Under the pieces are notes generated by a model that saw only the letters and a list, made by a program, of their open reading frames with translations, did not search any database and was not told where the DNA came from. Shown one piece after another: positions 45,337 through 52,653 of a stretch of 58,764 nt of DNA. The position numbers were made by a program, and so were the translations under genes. This stretch comes from Candidatus Saccharimonadales bacterium (GTDB taxonomy: Bacteria > Patescibacteriota > Saccharimonadia > QS-5-54-17). The stretch is taken from the NCBI GenBank assembly GCA_040876925.1, contig JBBDOS010000009.1, positions 1-58,764 of the forward strand, in the 5' to 3' direction. Within the stretch, counting starts at the first letter, position 1. Each line of letters starts with the position of its first letter.

Positions 45337-45693
45337 ATGTTAAGAAGATCTTATTTATTTGTTGGTATAGTGGTGCTACTGTTGTTTGCAACGTTAATTG
45401 TTAGCATGTTTATAACAAACCCAGATGAGCTAGGTCCATTCGGCCTCACTCTTTGGTTTTCTACTCTACTAACTGCTACAACTGGACTCTTGTGGATAAT
45501 CTTAACTAGTTTTATATACGGCAAGAGCAGAGAGGGGATGATGATAGCGCTAAGAAGATCATTTTTAATAAGTATGTGGGCTGTAGCTATTCTTGCTCTG
45601 AGCAGTTTGCGTCAACTCGGTATTAGAGATATCATTCTTTTAACTGTTTTGGGGCTGTTAATAGATTTTTATATGAAGCGAGTGCAGAAATGA
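45337..45693 (+). CDS. Hypothetical 4-TM membrane protein (CPR type)
   Basis: P.ELG..G..L.F, ALRRSFL, LALSSLRQL; overlaps pheS (ATGA). Confidence 0.65.
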   Translation: MLRRSYLFVGIVVLLLFATLIVSMFITNPDELGPFGLTLWFSTLLTATTGLLWIILTSFIYGKSREGMMIALRRSFLISMWAVAILALSSLRQLGIRDIILLTVLGLLIDFYMKRVQK

Positions 45694-46706
45694 ACCAAGA
45701 AGATATTATTCAGAAATTTAAACAAGATATAGAAAAAACTGATTCACTAAAATCGGTAGATGAACTAAGAGTTGAATATATAGGGCGTAAGGGTTTAGTA
45801 ACTAATTTACTGAGATCGGTTGGTGATATACCAGAGAAAGATAGAGCTGCAGAAGGCCAACGCCTCAATAGTCTCAAGAAAGAGATAGAGAGTGCTATTG
45901 AATCAAAACAACTAGAACTCAGAAGTGCTCAGTTAGAATCAGAAATATCTGACTCTGTAGATATAACTTTGCCCGGAGAAGGACACACAGTTGGTCACTT
46001 TCATCCAGTTCAGTCGCTGCAACAGGACTTAATAGATATATTTTCTCAAATTGGCTTTAGCGTAGCTGATGGACCAGAGGTAGAGACAGATTGGTATTGC
46101 TTTGAAGCTCTTAATATACCCGTTAACCATCCAGCTAGAGATATGCAAGACACTTTTTATCTAGAAGATGGCAACATTCCAAGGACCCACACCTCCAGTG
46201 TTCAGATAAGGTATATGGAGAATAACGAGCCACCTATTAGAATTATATCTCCAGGTGTTGTTTATCGTAATGAAGACGAAGATGCTACTCACTCTTGGGC
46301 TTTTAGGCAAATAGAAGGATTGGTTGTAGACAAAAATATAAGCCTTTCAGATCTTAAAGGCACTTTATTATATATGCTAAAAGGTATTTTAGGAGAGAAT
46401 ATTCGTATCAAATTGCTACCCAACTATTTTCCTTATGTAGAGCCCGCACTAGAAGTTCATGCTAGCTGTATATTATGTGACGGTAAGGAGGCAAGTTGTC
46501 GTATGTGTAAGGGCACTGGCTGGTTGGAAATGCTTGGTGCTGGTATGGTTCATCCTCAGGTATTACGTAATGTTGGTATAGATCCAGATATATATAGTGG
46601 TTTTGCTTTCGGTGGCGGCATAGATAGAATAGCGATGATAAAATATCAAATTGATGATATACGGTATTTATGGCGCCCTAATCTAAAGTTTTTGGAGCAA
46701 TTTTAA
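45690..46706 (+). CDS. pheS: Phenylalanine--tRNA ligase alpha subunit
   Basis: GHFHPV, FEALNIPVNHPARDMQDTFY, RTHTSSVQ, YFPYVEP, GMVHP, GFAFGGGIDR. Confidence 0.98.
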   Translation: MNQEDIIQKFKQDIEKTDSLKSVDELRVEYIGRKGLVTNLLRSVGDIPEKDRAAEGQRLNSLKKEIESAIESKQLELRSAQLESEISDSVDITLPGEGHTVGHFHPVQSLQQDLIDIFSQIGFSVADGPEVETDWYCFEALNIPVNHPARDMQDTFYLEDGNIPRTHTSSVQIRYMENNEPPIRIISPGVVYRNEDEDATHSWAFRQIEGLVVDKNISLSDLKGTLLYMLKGILGENIRIKLLPNYFPYVEPALEVHASCILCDGKEASCRMCKGTGWLEMLGAGMVHPQVLRNVGIDPDIYSGFAFGGGIDRIAMIKYQIDDIRYLWRPNLKFLEQF

Positions 46707-46707
46707 G

Positions 46708-49503
46708 ATGTTAGTAGTACTAGATTGGCTGGAGGAATACTTAAACGATAAACCAGGACTAGACCAGGTTATAGAAGCCATGGATAAAGCAGGCGTGGAG
46801 GTGGAGGGAGTATATAGGCCACCAAATTTCGACACTAATATAGTAGTGGCTGAAGTTTTAGAAGTTAAACCTCACTCAGATGCAGATAAACTTAAAATAG
46901 CCACTGTTAGTGACGGCAATAATAAATACTCAATAGTCTGTGGCGCTCCTAATGTAGCTAAAAATCAACACGTTGTTTTGGCAAGAAAAGATTCAGTATT
47001 ACCTGATGGCAATAAAATCGAAAAAACAACAATCAGAGGTGAAGTTTCTGAAGGAATGCTTTGCTCTCCTAAAGAGTTAAATCTAGGAGAATATCATAGC
47101 GGCATAATGATTTTTAATGAAGATATTAATTTAGGTACACCCATTAGAGGTCTATTTAACTCTGATTATACAGTTATAGATATAAAAACTGCCGCTAATA
47201 GACCTGATTTGCAGGGCTATAAAGGCTTAGCTATAGAAATAGCAGCTCATACCGGAGTAGATACTATTATGGATGAAGATAGTCCTCTTTCTATAAGGGA
47301 AGACGATGACTTATTTACAATAGAAACAGAAGAATCAGTCCAGTCTTACTCCTTAATTAAATTAAAAATTAATGCTAGTAAATCTTCGCCAACCTGGATG
47401 CAAAGAAGATTACGTTTGAGCGGCATCAAGACAATTAATGCTGTTGTTGATATTACTAACTATTGCATGTTATCTCTGGGACAGCCCATGCACGCCTTTG
47501 ACACTAACAAAATCAAAGACAGAATTCATGTTAGGTTCGCGCAAAAAGATGAGAAATTAACTACCCTAGACGGTATAAACAGAAGTTTAACAGTAGAGGA
47601 TTTAGTAATTGCCGATAATAGTAAACCTATAGGTTTGGCGGGTGTTATAGGAGGAGAAGAGTCAGAAATTACAGAAGAGACCAAAGAGATATTGTTGGAG
47701 TCAGCCACCTTTGACGCCTCGACAGTAAGGAAAACTGCCCAAAGACACACAGTAAGAACAGATGCCAGTGCTAGGTTTGAAAGAGGTCTCCCCACGCAAC
47801 TAGTCATACAGGCTAATGAGCTAGCTTGTAAGCTGATGGTTGAATATGCAGATGCGGAACTTGTTTCTCACAAGCACCAATTGAATATATGGCCATGGGT
47901 TAGACATATTGGCTTAAGGGTCAGCCGCTTTCAAGATATAAGCAGTTTAGATCTCAAGAAAGAAGAGATAGTTGCGGAATTAAAGAAATTGCACTTTGAT
48001 GCTAGTGTTTTCGATATAGTTAAAGAGGCTCGTAAACATCTTGGTAAGTCTTATAAAATTGGAGCTAACTTCAAAAAAGATGGCGTAGAAGCTTTTGACT
48101 GTTCCTATTTAGTTGATTATATATACTCGCTAATAGGTGTTAATGTTGGTCATACGGCGCTTGGTCAATATGAACTAGGCAGAGTAGTGGAAGGAGAGTT
48201 GATTCCAGGAGACGTGCTGTTTATAGAAGGAGTTATAGATAAATCTGCAACAGATCACTACTATATAAGTGACTCTAATGGCAATAAAATAAAACGCCAA
48301 CTAGATTCAGATAAAAAAGTTGGACATAACGGTATATATATTGGCGGTGATAAGGTCATTACAGCTGCTGAGTATATATATAGCGATGGCAAATGGGAGA
48401 AAAGAGCTAGTAGCGGCGTCTTGGAGGTAGACGTTAGTGAATTCTTGAATAATCCAGGTTATCTAGGCGCTAGGAGATATGTAGATAATTTAAATGATTA
48501 TATAAGCGCTACAGTTCCATGGTGGCGCCCAGACGTTAATATTGAAGCCGATCTGTTCGAAGAGGTAGTAAAAACAATAGGTTTAGATAAACTAGATGCT
48601 ACTTTACCAAAATGGAACGTCAATATAGATACACCAGATAATTATTGGCGTAGGTTTAGGTTAATTAGGCACTTGCTCAGAGCTATGGGATTATTTGAGG
48701 TTACAACATACCCATTTATAAGCCCGAGGGTTGTTGAGCTTTTTAATCTCCAAGACTATGATCACTTAAAACTCAAAAATCCCCGCAGTAAAGAACAGTC
48801 ATTTCTTAGGCGGAGTTTAGTTCCGCAGATGCTACTATCTGTCCATGATAATCAATCATATCGTCACGAATTTGGTTTCTTTGAAATAGCCAAAACCTTT
48901 ACCCCTTCAGATAAAAGGGGAGAACTACCTCAAGAGATACCTATGCTAACAGTTGTTTATACAGGTGATAAGGCATTATCTAGAGTTAAAAATTGTTTGG
49001 ATCAATTAATTAAGGAGGTTGGAGGGTCTATTAACTTATCACCATCTTCAGATATACCGTTTCTACATCCCTCCAGGAGATCTAGACTAGAACAAGGAGA
49101 ACTGTATATTGGTGATTATGGTTCTATACACCCAGATATTAACCATCACCTCAAACTATCTAAAGATTCAGCCGCTTTAGAGATAGATCTTAATGCCTTA
49201 TTTGCCATCTGGACCGACCCAAGGTTTGAGCCTATCCCTAAATACCAAAGCGGTTACCGTGACTTAACCTTAGCTATACCTGAGGGATTAAGCTGGCAAG
49301 ATCTAAATAGTTATCTATCTAGCATCAAAGATATAAAATCGAGCTTCAAGGATTACTTCTCTAAAGATGGAGTTAAAAAAATAACTATTCATGTTGAATT
49401 AATTTCTAAGGATAAAACTCTAAAAGATTCAGATATAGCGAGTAAAATCAACGAGATTGAACAGGGATTAAAAAGAGATCTAAATATTATAGTGGAACAT
49501 TAG
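46708..49503 (+). CDS. pheT: Phenylalanine--tRNA ligase beta subunit with inserted NlpC/P60 domain
   Basis: OB fold (CGAPNV, RGEVSEGMLCS), B3/4 (GQPMHAFD, RFERG), split B5 (VPWWRPDV..EADLFEEV), catalytic-like and ACB domains; insert at aa ~436-593. Confidence 0.96.
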   Translation: MLVVLDWLEEYLNDKPGLDQVIEAMDKAGVEVEGVYRPPNFDTNIVVAEVLEVKPHSDADKLKIATVSDGNNKYSIVCGAPNVAKNQHVVLARKDSVLPDGNKIEKTTIRGEVSEGMLCSPKELNLGEYHSGIMIFNEDINLGTPIRGLFNSDYTVIDIKTAANRPDLQGYKGLAIEIAAHTGVDTIMDEDSPLSIREDDDLFTIETEESVQSYSLIKLKINASKSSPTWMQRRLRLSGIKTINAVVDITNYCMLSLGQPMHAFDTNKIKDRIHVRFAQKDEKLTTLDGINRSLTVEDLVIADNSKPIGLAGVIGGEESEITEETKEILLESATFDASTVRKTAQRHTVRTDASARFERGLPTQLVIQANELACKLMVEYADAELVSHKHQLNIWPWVRHIGLRVSRFQDISSLDLKKEEIVAELKKLHFDASVFDIVKEARKHLGKSYKIGANFKKDGVEAFDCSYLVDYIYSLIGVNVGHTALGQYELGRVVEGELIPGDVLFIEGVIDKSATDHYYISDSNGNKIKRQLDSDKKVGHNGIYIGGDKVITAAEYIYSDGKWEKRASSGVLEVDVSEFLNNPGYLGARRYVDNLNDYISATVPWWRPDVNIEADLFEEVVKTIGLDKLDATLPKWNVNIDTPDNYWRRFRLIRHLLRAMGLFEVTTYPFISPRVVELFNLQDYDHLKLKNPRSKEQSFLRRSLVPQMLLSVHDNQSYRHEFGFFEIAKTFTPSDKRGELPQEIPMLTVVYTGDKALSRVKNCLDQLIKEVGGSINLSPSSDIPFLHPSRRSRLEQGELYIGDYGSIHPDINHHLKLSKDSAALEIDLNALFAIWTDPRFEPIPKYQSGYRDLTLAIPEGLSWQDLNSYLSSIKDIKSSFKDYFSKDGVKKITIHVELISKDKTLKDSDIASKINEIEQGLKRDLNIIVEH
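48013..48486 (+). other. NlpC/P60 (C40-like) domain inserted in PheT
   Basis: IVKEARKHLGKSY..G, FDCSYLVDYIY (Cys465), LIPGDVLF, VGHNGIYIGGDKVITA (His540), YLGARRY. Confidence 0.88.
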
Positions 49504-49522: not shown

Positions 49523-49561
49523 TTGCCAGTTCTGCCCTCTAGCAGCTATACTGAATTTAGC

Positions 49562-49969
49562 ATGACTCAGCCATCACAAAACCCAGAATCAGCTCCAAAC
49601 CTTCCAGAGCAATACGATTTTCCTCAACTTAAAGAGGAGCACCAGCCATTAGCAGGAGAAGTTTATGAGCCGGGAGCGGAACGACAGGCAGAACAGAACG
49701 TAGAAACTGATGTCAGCGATAGTCAGGTCCAAGCACCTATTAATGATGATACTAATGATTCAACTGATTTACCCAAGCATGTAGTAGTTGCTGATATTCC
49801 GGACGTGGCTGATGATATAGATGTTATAGAAAAAGCCTGGGTAGATAGAGCTAAACAGATTATAAAAGAAAATAAGGATGATCCCAGGTCCCAGGAAGAA
49901 GCTTTCGAGCAATTACAGATTGAATATCATAAAAAGCGCTATGGGCGTGACATTAAGGCTAAAAGGTAG
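49562..49969 (+). CDS. Hypothetical protein (low-complexity N-terminus, helical C-terminal domain)
   Basis: DDIDVIEKAWVDRAKQII...DDP..QEE....LQIEYHKKRYGR; start set at ATG 49562. Confidence 0.65.
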   Translation: MTQPSQNPESAPNLPEQYDFPQLKEEHQPLAGEVYEPGAERQAEQNVETDVSDSQVQAPINDDTNDSTDLPKHVVVADIPDVADDIDVIEKAWVDRAKQIIKENKDDPRSQEEAFEQLQIEYHKKRYGRDIKAKR

Positions 49970-49980
49970 CAATAATATTT

Positions 49981-52653
49981 ATGGGTGCCTTAACGCTCTT
50001 TATTTTGATGACGATAATAACACTAACTGTAATAACAGCAGCATTTGTTATTTATAGAAAGGGCTTAAGGTTTGCTAAAGGAGTAGAAAGAGGCATTAAG
50101 ATGGTGCCCATACTTATTAATTTGCCGCCTTCAAGTGAGGATATAGAAGTAGGCCAGAGGGATATACGTGATGTTATTCAAGAAAGAATTTCGCAAGCTG
50201 AGGTGTTATACAGTTTAATAGCTGGTACTACCACCAAAGGTTTTAAAAGCAAGTTTTTTGGCCAGAGACATATAGGTTTTGAAATTGTTGCTATAAATGG
50301 CACTATACGTCTTTATGCGGCTGTGCCTGTGGCATTGGTTTCGGTGGTTAAACAAGCTATCTTAACTGCTTATCCTGGAGCTCAACTAGATGAAGTTGAG
50401 GATCATAATATTTTTTCTGATGTAGGCAAAATAAGCGGTACTTATGGTGGTGAGATTAAACTTAAACAGCCATACTCTTACCCCATATCTACTGCTCAAC
50501 AACTTAAACGTGATGCTATGCAGGCCATTATAAAAGCCTTAGCTAGTATCGACCAAGGTGATGGTGCTAGTTTACAGATACTAATTCGTCCAGCTAGGAA
50601 TAATTGGACTAAAGTATCTGAGAGTTTAGTAAAGAAGAAGCGTGAGGATAAAGATAAATCGGGTGTTTCGGTTAAAGACTTAATTAAAGCTCCATTTAGG
50701 GCTCCTGACGGGGGAGGTGAAGGGGATAAGCCATCAAAACCACCTAAACAATTAAGCAACTTAGAACAAACAACACTCGATTTGATAGAGGAAAAAACTA
50801 GATCTCCTGGATATGAAACATTAATCAGAGTCGTCTCGTCATCTTCAACAGCAGCTAAATCCCAAGCTATTACTAGCAATATTGTTTCTGCATTTTCATT
50901 GTTTGACGCTCCTGGGCTTAACGGATTTAAGTTTGAAGCAGCTAAGAATATAGAGAACTTTGTTACGGATTTCATCTTTCGATTCTTTCCTCCCGAAAAG
51001 AACAAGATGATATTAAGTAGTGTTGAATTAGCATCACTATTCCATTTACCAGATGATCAGTTTGCTAAAACAGCTAAACTGGAAAGACAGTCATCCAAAC
51101 AGGTTGAGGGCCCCACAAAAGTTAGTCAAGACGGTTTATTGCTAGGGCATAACACTTATCATGAGGTACAAAAAGAAATACGTCTTAGTGATGAGGACCG
51201 CCGCCGCCACTTATATATTGTAGGACAAACTGGTACGGGTAAAACTACAGTACTATCTAATTTGATGGTTCAAGATATGGTTGCTGGTAAGGGCTTTGCT
51301 TTTATAGACCCCCATGGTGATGAAGCGGAGAATTTACTAGGCATGGTGCCGAAGAGCAGAATGGAAGACGTTATATATTTTGATCCAGCCCATATCAATC
51401 ATCCAGTAGGTCTTAATCTATTCGAGCACCACACTGAAGATCAAAAAGACTTTTTAATTCAAGAAGCAATTAATATGCTTTATAGGCTATATGATCCACA
51501 ACATACTGGGATAATAGGTCCTAGATATGAGCACTTATTTAGAAATGCTGCATTGGTTGTAATGGCTGATCCCGATGGTGGGACATTTGTAGATATTCCT
51601 AAATTATTCAGAGATCCGCAATTCGTGCGACAAAAACTGGAACACGTACAAGATCAGTCCGTAAGAGAATTTTGGCAAAAAGAAATGCCACAATCTCAGC
51701 GATCTAATGATTTTGGTGAGGTGGTTAGCTGGTTTGTCTCTAAATTTGGGGCTTTCTTGAATAACCAATTAATGCGCAATACGATCGGCCAAGCTAAAAG
51801 TGCCTTTGATTTAAGAGAAGTTATGGATGGCAATAAAATATTAATAGCTAATTTGAGCAAAGGTCGTTTAGGTGAGCTTAACTCTCAATTACTAGGTATG
51901 ATATTTGTAATGAAGTTTCAGGCTGCAGCCATGAGTAGGGCTAATATACCTGAGTCCGAGCGAAAAGACTTCTCCCTCTATGTAGATGAGTTTCAGAACT
52001 TTTCAACAGAATCTTTTGCTTTTATTCTTTCAGAAGCTCGTAAATATCGTCTAAGCTTGATTGTAGCTAACCAATTTATTTCTCAACTAAGTGAGGAAGT
52101 AAGAGATGCAGTATTTGGTAATGTTGGTACGGTTTTAAGTTTTCGTACAGGCCCAGCAGATGCGGACTTTTTAGTTAAACAGTTTTCTCCTTCTTTTAAT
52201 GAGCATGATTTAGTTAATCTACCTAACTTTAATGCAGTTGTGCGCTTAATGCATGAAGGGTTGCCCAGCAAGCCATTTAATATCATGACGCTGCCTCCAT
52301 TAGCTCAATCTAATAAACAAGTATCCACAGCTCTCAAGCATCTATCAGGTGCTAAATACGGCAGACCTCGCTTACAAGTAGAGGAAGAGATATTTAATCG
52401 TCTTTCTACTAAATCTACTCCCAATCCTTTTGAGAGTTTAGCTAACACTCAGGGTCTAGGTGATAAGGGTTCAACCCAGGGTTCATCTAATAACCCTAAG
52501 CAGCAAACAAGTTCTTCTTTTCTTGATGAGTGGCTTGAAAAACGAAAGAAGGTTATGGATAATAAGCCGTCAACTTCTACTACAGATTCAGATAGTCAAA
52601 ACACCTTACCAGAGCTTGATGATAATAAGAATATTAATTCTGATAATAACTAA
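49981..52653 (+). CDS. VirD4/TraD/HerA-like (DUF87) membrane-anchored ATPase
   Basis: N-terminal TM segment, RRRHLYIVGQTGTGKT (Walker A), FIDPHGD, LYVDEFQNF (Walker B), EARKYRL, ANQFISQL. Confidence 0.85.
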   Translation: MGALTLFILMTIITLTVITAAFVIYRKGLRFAKGVERGIKMVPILINLPPSSEDIEVGQRDIRDVIQERISQAEVLYSLIAGTTTKGFKSKFFGQRHIGFEIVAINGTIRLYAAVPVALVSVVKQAILTAYPGAQLDEVEDHNIFSDVGKISGTYGGEIKLKQPYSYPISTAQQLKRDAMQAIIKALASIDQGDGASLQILIRPARNNWTKVSESLVKKKREDKDKSGVSVKDLIKAPFRAPDGGGEGDKPSKPPKQLSNLEQTTLDLIEEKTRSPGYETLIRVVSSSSTAAKSQAITSNIVSAFSLFDAPGLNGFKFEAAKNIENFVTDFIFRFFPPEKNKMILSSVELASLFHLPDDQFAKTAKLERQSSKQVEGPTKVSQDGLLLGHNTYHEVQKEIRLSDEDRRRHLYIVGQTGTGKTTVLSNLMVQDMVAGKGFAFIDPHGDEAENLLGMVPKSRMEDVIYFDPAHINHPVGLNLFEHHTEDQKDFLIQEAINMLYRLYDPQHTGIIGPRYEHLFRNAALVVMADPDGGTFVDIPKLFRDPQFVRQKLEHVQDQSVREFWQKEMPQSQRSNDFGEVVSWFVSKFGAFLNNQLMRNTIGQAKSAFDLREVMDGNKILIANLSKGRLGELNSQLLGMIFVMKFQAAAMSRANIPESERKDFSLYVDEFQNFSTESFAFILSEARKYRLSLIVANQFISQLSEEVRDAVFGNVGTVLSFRTGPADADFLVKQFSPSFNEHDLVNLPNFNAVVRLMHEGLPSKPFNIMTLPPLAQSNKQVSTALKHLSGAKYGRPRLQVEEEIFNRLSTKSTPNPFESLANTQGLGDKGSTQGSSNNPKQQTSSSFLDEWLEKRKKVMDNKPSTSTTDSDSQNTLPELDDNKNINSDNN

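Follow-up and report, generated by a model that had tools for sequence, protein, structure and literature searches.

The window analysed here is a stretch of 58,764 nucleotides, positions 1 to 58,764 of contig JBBDOS010000009.1 (assembly GCA_040876925.1), from a Candidatus Saccharimonadales bacterium of the Patescibacteriota. Its forward strand carries pheT, the gene for the beta subunit of phenylalanyl-tRNA synthetase (PheRS), at 46708..49503, and the B5 domain of the encoded protein is interrupted by a domain of the NlpC/P60 (C40) cysteine peptidase family, at 48013..48486. The acquisition of domains for editing, tRNA binding and signalling is known among aminoacyl-tRNA synthetases, and we know of no case in which a complete cysteine peptidase of the cell-wall type sits within a core domain of such an essential enzyme. 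Full-text literature searches for a PheRS–NlpC/P60 fusion found no description of one, and the conserved PheT::NlpC/P60 fusion appears to be undescribed. Both domain families are already known, and precomputed Pfam annotations show the two of them on these proteins.

The pheT open reading frame (ORF) is continuous over 931 amino acids in the ORF list and in translation. The protein matches the bacterial PheT model TIGR00472 (pheT_bact) with 617.3 bits for a cut-off of 402.65, in two stretches that are broken at the insert. Pfam recognizes B3_4 (211.7 bits), tRNA_synthFbeta (129.5), tRNA_bind (66.8), B5 (38.3) and FDX-ACB (30.5), and the domain set B1-B8 is complete, with all eight canonical domains in order. 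The AlphaFold2 (AF2) model of the whole protein has a mean predicted local distance difference test (pLDDT) score of 93.6, with values of 85-98 over the insert, and it superposes in Foldseek on the solved bacterial PheRS beta chains with a structural similarity score (TMt) of 0.66-0.77. These chains, from Thermus thermophilus (1pys/2iy5), Escherichia coli (3pco) and Mycobacterium tuberculosis (7k98), share with the window PheT its domains, its editing residues and the acidic residues of B5, whereas over their 775-836 residues nothing is inserted in the B5 hairpin, whose strands meet in a turn of 2-5 residues. Judged by profile matches and predicted structure, the window PheT is a genuine bacterial PheRS beta, and its gene is the only one of the genome to bear a B3_4 domain. 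The pheS gene (45690..46706, + strand), assigned from its position upstream of pheT and from typical class II motifs in its translation, encodes the 338-residue alpha subunit, and its TAA stop sits beside the ATG of pheT (sequence 46691-46715). The PheRS holoenzyme would be a cytoplasmic (alpha-beta)2 heterotetramer of roughly 260 kDa.

An earlier interpretation of the bare letters, hereafter the sequence-only reading, had placed an NlpC/P60 domain at 48013-48486 inside the B5 domain of a PheT enlarged to 931 residues, with a continuous frame and intact flanks. Each part of this description is borne out. The nested domain covers residues 436-593 (158 residues, + strand) and is recognized by AF2, by Foldseek and by Pfam NLPC_P60 (PF00877), which scores it at 37.7 bits within the whole protein and at 44.3 bits on its own, for a gathering cut-off of 23. 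In the native protein, Pfam sees only the second half of B5 (residues 593-625, profile positions 34-66). Once the flanks, residues 397-435 and 596-632, are joined in silico, a full B5 emerges (PF03484, 54 bits, profile positions 2-66 of 67), and because the spliced flanks restore a complete profile match, the insert splits B5 cleanly. The N-terminal half of B5 (residues 397-435; 47896..48012, +), delimited by the splice test with Pfam and by AF2 secondary structure, terminates in a strand at 431-434. The C-terminal half (residues 594-630; 48487..48597, +) contains a strand at 598-603, the PWWRPD motif and the acidic residues D609, D615, E618 and E619. The two strands bracket the insert in the AF2 model and are linked by a turn of 2-5 residues at the same site in insert-less relatives; the insert enters B5 at the tip of its beta-hairpin, or wing. 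Base composition shows no break across the insert and no sign of a recent DNA insertion.

Modelled alone, the insert reaches a pLDDT of 93.8 and a predicted template modelling score of 0.89. AF2 predicts a papain-like alpha+beta fold in which helix 465-474 begins at Cys465 and strand 540-546 begins at His540. Foldseek returns 48 matches in the PDB at E<=1e-3, all of them of the NlpC/P60 cell-wall hydrolase type and nearly all peptidoglycan DL-endopeptidases. They include Acd24020 (7cfl, the top match), MepS, LytE, 9ubf, YkfC, Acd33800, a T. thermophilus DL-endopeptidase, SagA and RipB, with TMt values up to 0.83; LRAT and CHAP amidases are not among the high-ranking matches, and sequence and profile searches of the PDB return the same NlpC/P60 families. 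A permuted NlpC/P60 domain of the LRAT or YaeF/YiiX C92 kind was considered and ruled out, since Cys465 precedes His540 and PF05708, the permuted model, scores 17-19 bits over a local segment only, below its cut-off of 27. The equivalog match of PheT and the predicted NlpC/P60 fold uphold the earlier view of a papain-like module housed in an essential, cytoplasmic PheRS beta.

The loop of ~30 residues that had been noticed between GDVLF and GH is real. It spans residues 509-537 (48232..48318, +), between the GDxxF motif and the catalytic histidine, and is predicted by AF2 as a family-specific extra beta-hairpin of about 29 residues, with strands at 517-521 and 527-531 and a mean pairwise identity of 0.394. 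The hairpin (SATDHYYISDSNGNKIK) resembles the subsequent hairpin that bears the catalytic histidine (KVGHNGIYIGGDKVIT), a likeness which suggests that it may have arisen by internal duplication; it has been deleted again in several lineages.

Downstream of pheT, a very acidic ORF of 148 residues (49523-49969) precedes an ORF of 890 residues (49981-52653, +), two genes away from pheT, whose product has a membrane segment at its N-terminus and a Walker A motif, GQTGTGKT. The larger product looks like an ATPase of the TraG/VirD4 or HerA type.

Predicted catalytic dyad and substrate pocket, and the surrounding B5 domain

Residue conservation was assessed over an alignment of 111-113 full-length insert-bearing PheT orthologues. 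Cys465 (codon 48100-48102) and His540 (48325..48327, +) are invariant in 111/111 and occur in the canonical, non-permuted order. The nucleophile lies between an Asp and a Ser of the S1 pocket, in the triplet Asp464-Cys465-Ser466 (48097..48105, +), each residue being found in 111/111 and its codon verified. His540 is also present in inserts devoid of the extra hairpin and is lost from decayed inserts. The further invariant residues are Y449, D464, S466, Y467, D470, Q487, G501, D502, F505, G546 and R590. All NlpC/P60 motifs quoted in the sequence-only reading were found, and the codons of Cys465, His540 and Thr552 were verified. Its choice of His540 as the catalytic histidine stands although the Pfam PF00877 alignment ends at residue 531; this early stop apparently reflects His517, within the TDHYY of the extra hairpin, being taken for the histidine of the profile. 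As a catalytic residue His517 was rejected, being only ~86% conserved and missing in loop-less variants, whereas His540 is invariant. At the canonical third position of the triad (His+12), the window indeed has a threonine, Thr552 (48361..48363, +). This position is variable among the 111 orthologues (H45, M24, Q19, T15, E4), and a polar residue is not universal there.

In the numbering of Bacillus YkfC, the S1 pocket by which NlpC/P60 enzymes hold gamma-D-Glu consists of Tyr226, Trp228 or a different hydrophobic residue in its place, Asp237, Ser239 and, at 257, a small residue, and proteins that keep the S1 residues plus the Cys/His dyad are predicted to bind X-L-Ala-gamma-D-Glu (PMC2954226). 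The equivalents in the insert, mapped by profile alignment to 3h41 and by motif, are Tyr449 (48052..48054, +), which corresponds to Tyr226, the S1 or catalytic tyrosine, with D464 and S466, all three in 111/111, then T483 (98/111) and A484 (A or S in 102/111). Position 451, the counterpart of Trp228, is occupied by W, F, L, Y or M among the orthologues and by Ile in the window. By profile alignment, the insert possesses the gamma-D-Glu S1 signature as well as the dyad, and this pattern of conservation indicates that it is probably a catalytically competent cysteine hydrolase of the p60 type.

The p60-type DL-endopeptidases, such as Acd24020 (7cfl), MepS/Spr (2k1g, 8xud) and LytE/CwlO (8i2d, 8wt3), share with the insert their fold (TMt up to 0.83), the order of their motifs, namely (G.PY.WG), DCS, (..Q), (GD..F), (H.G.Y.G) and (ARR), the Cys-His dyad, the conserved tyrosine and the gamma-D-Glu S1 residues. 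They are either secreted or anchored by a lipid and have the sacculus as their target, whereas the insert is leaderless and located inside a cytoplasmic synthetase. Hairpin 509-537, a longer hairpin at 555-570, the replacement of the Arg of the LPR motif by H, Y or F and the variable third residue are specific to the insert.

Intracellular enzymes of the same superfamily offer a second comparison. Bacillus YkfC, or dipeptidyl peptidase VI (DPP VI; 3h41), is an intracellular NlpC/P60 protein that cuts the gamma-D-Glu-mDAP/Lys bond (mDAP, meso-diaminopimelate) in free murein peptides (PMC2954226), and Chlamydia trachomatis YkfC recycles peptidoglycan peptides in the cytoplasm of an organism with a reduced genome (PMC9928106). 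In YkfC an accessory SH3b domain forms part of the active site and thereby spares biosynthetic precursors. The marks of the YkfC subfamily are Asp256 and the SH3b residue Tyr118, which bind L-Ala's free amine; both are missing from the insert. Position 482, equivalent to Asp256, is H, Y or F (H83/Y21/F7) and the acidic residue is gone, and the Pfam scan finds no SH3b domain in PheT. YkfC enzymes are independent proteins, whereas the insert is nested in another enzyme. Membership of the YkfC/DPP VI subfamily was rejected on the residue at 482 and the missing SH3b, though the insert may work similarly.

The domain that surrounds the insert retains its acidic residues: D609, D615, E618 and E619 are invariant among the aligned insert-bearing PheT and, by alignment to E. 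coli PheT and the B5 annotation, are presumably ligands of Mg2+. In PheRS, a small alpha/beta subdomain located before the linker to beta2 touches the aminoacylation domain of the alpha subunit, directly and through a conserved Mg2+ (PMC8136816). We take this subdomain to be B5, and because B5 contacts the alpha aminoacylation domain, the insert rides on a domain adjoining the catalytic subunit.

Conservation, distribution and descent of the insert

Mean pairwise identity is 0.553 over the insert (0.587 without the hairpin) and 0.399 over everything outside it; elsewhere in PheT it amounts to 0.505 in B3/4, 0.480 in the B5 flanks, 0.302 in B6-7 and 0.257 in B8. By this measure, the insert is the best-conserved part of PheT and the one that appears to be under the strongest purifying selection within the protein. 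A search restricted to this region of the protein, covering NCBI, JGI, ENA and Logan assemblies, gave at least 155 PheT clusters with PF00877 inside PheT, 46-86% identical over residues 415-615. Scanning genome collections yielded 46 named records with the architecture, mostly Candidatus Saccharibacteria or Saccharimonadia, with some from the Patescibacteria group and one from Howlettbacteria. Within the class to which the window belongs, about 50 of the 121 genomes sampled have the architecture, and in the phylum sample about 12-13 of 401 genomes, from at least seven families, have the insert in a PheT-sized frame. The window genome itself (696 kb, 97% complete) contains, in a whole-genome scan, the PheT insert as its sole PF00877 match.

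Such a distribution bears directly on whether the fusion could stem from an assembly chimera or a mis-joined contig. The same in-frame architecture recurs across many independent assemblies, the composition shows no break and the spliced flanks reconstitute an exact B5; we rejected this explanation, the probability of which is close to nil. The sequence-only reading had named beforehand three points on which the fusion could fall, namely a chimera, the fold and the conservation of Cys and His. The fusion came through each of them, with conservation across assemblies, an NlpC/P60 fold in AF2 and Foldseek, and a dyad found in 111/111.

Scoring PheT at the insertion site in the 121 genomes of the class revealed a graded series of states, which the sequence-only reading had not described. 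The full insert, of ~160 residues, is found in most carriers. In the loop-less state (L007, L028, L029, L030), residues 509-537 are deleted with Cys and His retained. Decayed inserts (L046-L050, from genomes G480, G477, G450, G402 and G444) are reduced to 100-120 residues and have lost the FDCSY motif and the histidine while retaining PGDxLF and YLGARRY; they amount to natural pseudo-enzyme remnants within an essential gene. In many families, the insert is absent and a tight hairpin turn takes its place.

A maximum-likelihood tree of the PheT body, computed with the insert columns removed, tracks the family codes. Of the two clades that it separates, one (19 sequences) is entirely insert-less, and in the other (51 sequences) the states are mixed. 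Presence and absence require at least seven changes on this tree, at least four of them forced by well-supported branches, and genus g9 has sister lineages of which one bears the full insert and the other none. The tree of the insert alone is largely congruent with the families. As an exception, the loop-less inserts of family f1 (L007, L008, L010) group with the loop-less L029 of family f6 with 99% support in the Shimodaira–Hasegawa-like approximate likelihood-ratio test, while the corresponding PheT bodies belong to different clades; insert recombination, convergent deletion or a tree artefact could be responsible. Since the insert and body trees are largely congruent, vertical descent with repeated loss is preferred: these trees favour a single ancient acquisition, after which the insert was deleted or decayed several times, with occasional recombination possible. 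A purely horizontal cassette was rejected, as the insert tree mostly matches the body tree at the family level. Its repeated loss or decay among close relatives indicates that the insert is dispensable for PheRS.

Two PheT frames, L128 (G260) and L129 (G181), are only 651-667 residues long. Their matches to the window PheT begin at residues 137-152, and they appear to be devoid of the B1/B2 (tRNA_bind) region at the N-terminus. Related genomes contain small tRNA_bind genes that stand alone (contig C12 of G114; L135, 2540-2926).

Free-standing relatives

The B5::NlpC/P60 arrangement also occurs outside PheT, in forms that did not figure in the sequence-only reading. Leaderless mini-proteins of ~200 residues, encoded by separate genes (family P0122-P0241), are colinear with residues ~411-616 of the window PheT and consist of the first half of B5, the NlpC/P60 domain and the second half of B5. 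The three mini-protein genes located in genomes lie at L073:1951-2601 (-, genome G114, protein P0122), L131:1254-1880 (-, G360) and L132:1494-2078 (+, G009). BLAST aligns mini-proteins with PheT at E values of 2e-18 and 7e-17, and the alignment obtained in the genome search starts at nucleotide 47938 (residue 411). The family comprises at least 865 clusters, of which the top 120 are 54-61% identical over their full length; cluster names point to Wildermuthbacteria, Taylorbacteria, Uhrbacteria and Paceibacterota. Databases annotate these mini-proteins only as 'NlpC/P60 family protein' and PheT fragments as 'C40 family peptidase', two automatic names that both hide the nested architecture.

The mini-proteins keep the Cys, His and S1 residues, have a shortened hairpin and possess canonical LPR and VIHA motifs. 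Both of their ends are conserved (MxYRAVGNRCAV at the N-terminus, TLETPxxREVExxDDIRWIILQSL at the C-terminus), and two of the four Mg-ligand positions of B5 are altered, the EE pair having changed. When their flanks are spliced together, B5 is the top Pfam match but stays under the threshold (22.2 bits at best, E 1.6e-4); the alignment spans the splice point, and hhalign aligns the flanks with insert-less B5 regions at a probability of 63% and E 7e-5. On these profile comparisons, the flanks are probably B5. The mini-proteins thus have the order of domains of the PheT insert and are likewise leaderless; they differ in having an N-terminus of their own and in being found with or without a canonical PheT.

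Of the three genomes that carry the located genes, G009 and G360 have an insert-less PheT, and G114 has no B3_4 domain at all. In the class of G114, the mini-protein is found in 10 of 101 genomes, seven without and three with canonical PheT. B3_4 (PF03483) matches only 24 of these 101 high-quality genomes, whereas the same model detects 14 of 14 control genomes, archaea included, and most of this class of Patescibacteria seems to be without canonical PheRS beta by profile search. The mini-protein and the PheT insert were never seen together in the samples, which are small (3 against 13 genomes).

Other Patescibacteria contain leaderless relatives reduced to the NlpC/P60 core, of 145-170 residues (L074, L075 and others). 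No conserved neighbourhood was found around the three mini-protein genes or the core-only genes, and neither a signal peptide nor wall-binding LysM or SH3b domains were found in the PheT-insert, mini-protein or core-only formats. The secreted NlpC/P60 proteins of related genomes (L133, L134) are ordinary multidomain proteins that bear a leader.

What the nested domain may do

Our favoured proposal, which we hold tentatively and at somewhat less than an even chance, is that the insert works in the cytoplasm as an active gamma-D-glutamyl amidase, with peptidoglycan-derived peptides as substrates and PheRS as its scaffold. Hydrolysis of muropeptides or other peptides is favoured because the gamma-D-Glu signature is conserved and the structural neighbours are DL-endopeptidases. 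The insert would cleave stem peptides of the peptidoglycan type in the cytoplasm, in the course of muropeptide salvage or turnover: Cys465 would be the nucleophile on the carbonyl of gamma-D-Glu, with His540 as general base, and the D-Glu moiety would be bound by Y449, D464, S466 and T483/A484. The peptidase activity would be separable from aminoacylation, and PheRS, specifically B5, would serve as a stable and constitutively expressed scaffold. B5 or the PheRS body may also wall one side of the cleft, as SH3b does in YkfC, and spare biosynthetic precursors; if this gating holds, the mini-proteins would keep their B5-like flanks because B5 walls the cleft. The window genome has five Mur-ligase-type genes, on contigs C11, C3, C4, C9 (29650-30285) and C2, one of which lies within the window, and on account of these genes peptidoglycan-type peptides are expected in the cell. 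Five is one more than the MurC-F set; the fifth gene could be Mpl or FolC, a distinction that bears on the recycling idea.

Several observations weigh against this proposal. Its substrate is deduced from a sequence signature and homology, the recycling role and the gating by B5 are proposals, and the exact peptide would not be predictable from S2, the YkfC determinants for a free N-terminal L-Ala being missing. The Arg of the LPR motif has been replaced, and the variable third residue, with Met in 24/111, is unusual for an amide-bond hydrolase and would suit an activated ester or thioester. A location in B5, beside the aminoacylation domain, is left unexplained, as are the B5-like flanks of the free-standing copies, unless gating by B5 accounts for the latter. 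Around pheT and the three mini-protein genes, gene context is not conserved, and genes for recycling or transport were not seen to be consistently linked to them. In addition, most insert-less genomes are without any NlpC/P60, so that no stand-alone enzyme was found to compensate for the loss of the insert in those genomes; for that reason, the activity of the insert would be accessory and the proposed recycling step not generally required.

The position of the insert suggests another possibility, in which the Cys-His site would work on substrates of PheRS itself, hydrolysing mis-acylated or D-aminoacyl-tRNA(Phe) or the aminoacyl-adenylate, or taking up Phe as a thioester to pass it to an acceptor. 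The contact of B5 with the aminoacylation domain of alpha is both direct and mediated by a conserved Mg2+ (PMC8136816), and the mini-proteins retain B5-like flanks with invariant residues, which hints at a contribution of B5 to function; the relaxed third residue fits activated esters better, NlpC/P60 enzymes handle acyl groups of D configuration, and the role of D-aminoacyl-tRNA deacylase is vacant in the class, Dtd (PF02580) not being found in 121/121 genomes. This absence is shared by insert-bearing and insert-less genomes alike, with no complementarity, and the idea that the insert replaces Dtd finds no support. Nor does it substitute for a degenerate B3/B4 editing site, an idea we rejected since the editing residues (E. 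coli N254, H265, G318, E334, T354 and A356, a list from mutational studies of the E. coli enzyme) are conserved in the window and in every insert state. The equivalent residues of the M. tuberculosis enzyme have been listed (PMC8136816). Loss or decay of the insert has occurred many times without visible compensation, mini-proteins exist in genomes without PheRS beta and have two of the four Mg-ligand positions of B5 altered, and a full gamma-D-Glu S1 signature is needless for a Phe or Tyr ester. Moreover, no NlpC/P60 enzyme is known to us to act on aminoacyl-tRNA. We consider this coupling unlikely, and it retains what weight it has because the location, the relaxed third residue and the LPR replacement are left unexplained by the amidase proposal. 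In a specific version, a shade less probable again, Cys465 at the B5 wing, beside the aminoacylation site, would accept the aminoacyl moiety of Phe-AMP, of (mis)acylated tRNA(Phe) or of D-aminoacyl-tRNA(Phe) and either hydrolyse it, as a second editing site of the papain type in a lineage without Dtd, or transfer it to a gamma-D-Glu acceptor such as a peptidoglycan precursor, the mini-proteins being trans-acting versions that dock via B5; if this were true, aminoacyl transfer by Cys465 would directly tie translation to wall metabolism. Among the roles listed in the sequence-only reading, peptide hydrolysis has gained from the S1 signature and the structural neighbours, and editing has lost ground, given the intact editing site, the lack of Dtd complementarity and the repeated loss and decay.

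Two further explanations, each of them quite improbable in our estimation, separate the domain from cytoplasmic catalysis. The insert might be a moonlighting DL-endopeptidase that reaches the wall of its own cell or of an epibiont's host after non-classical release or lysis, with PheRS as an abundant carrier. Its close neighbours in sequence and structure are all cell-wall hydrolases, among them lysins of phage-tail-like and conjugative elements (8v3w; Tn916-like 9ubf/4hpe), and it is the sole NlpC/P60 of a genome that makes peptidoglycan; against this stand the lack of a signal peptide and of LysM/SH3b in all three formats, the embedding of the domain in a cytoplasmic heterotetramer of roughly 260 kDa, and the ordinary leader-bearing architecture of the secreted NlpC/P60 proteins of related genomes. 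Alternatively, the insert might bind a ligand or play a structural part, for example as a muropeptide sensor or as a stabiliser of B5, its Cys and His being kept for binding. The decayed inserts, maintained at 100-120 residues and not deleted, indicate that the bulk of the domain is tolerated or useful without catalysis, and non-catalytic NlpC/P60 domains do exist, RipD (4jxb) being one of the Foldseek matches. Yet the dyad is gone from known pseudo-enzymes of the family, the insert is often lost cleanly, and a dyad, tyrosine and S1 residues found in 111/111, within the most conserved part of the protein, form the pattern of an enzyme.

As the best-conserved part of PheT and the only NlpC/P60 domain in a genome of ~0.7 Mb, the insert is something that a minimal organism pays to keep. 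The natural series of full, loop-less, decayed and absent states, together with the free-standing forms, constitutes a comparative system in which the role of the enzyme and the relevance of its fusion can be addressed, and the finding should interest those who study synthetases and the biology of the candidate phyla radiation. If the domain is a cytoplasmic gamma-D-glutamyl amidase, as we favour, it would provide a muropeptide-processing step in the cytoplasm of Patescibacteria, which depend on scavenging; if its chemistry is instead coupled to PheRS, it would represent a new kind of synthetase-associated chemistry.

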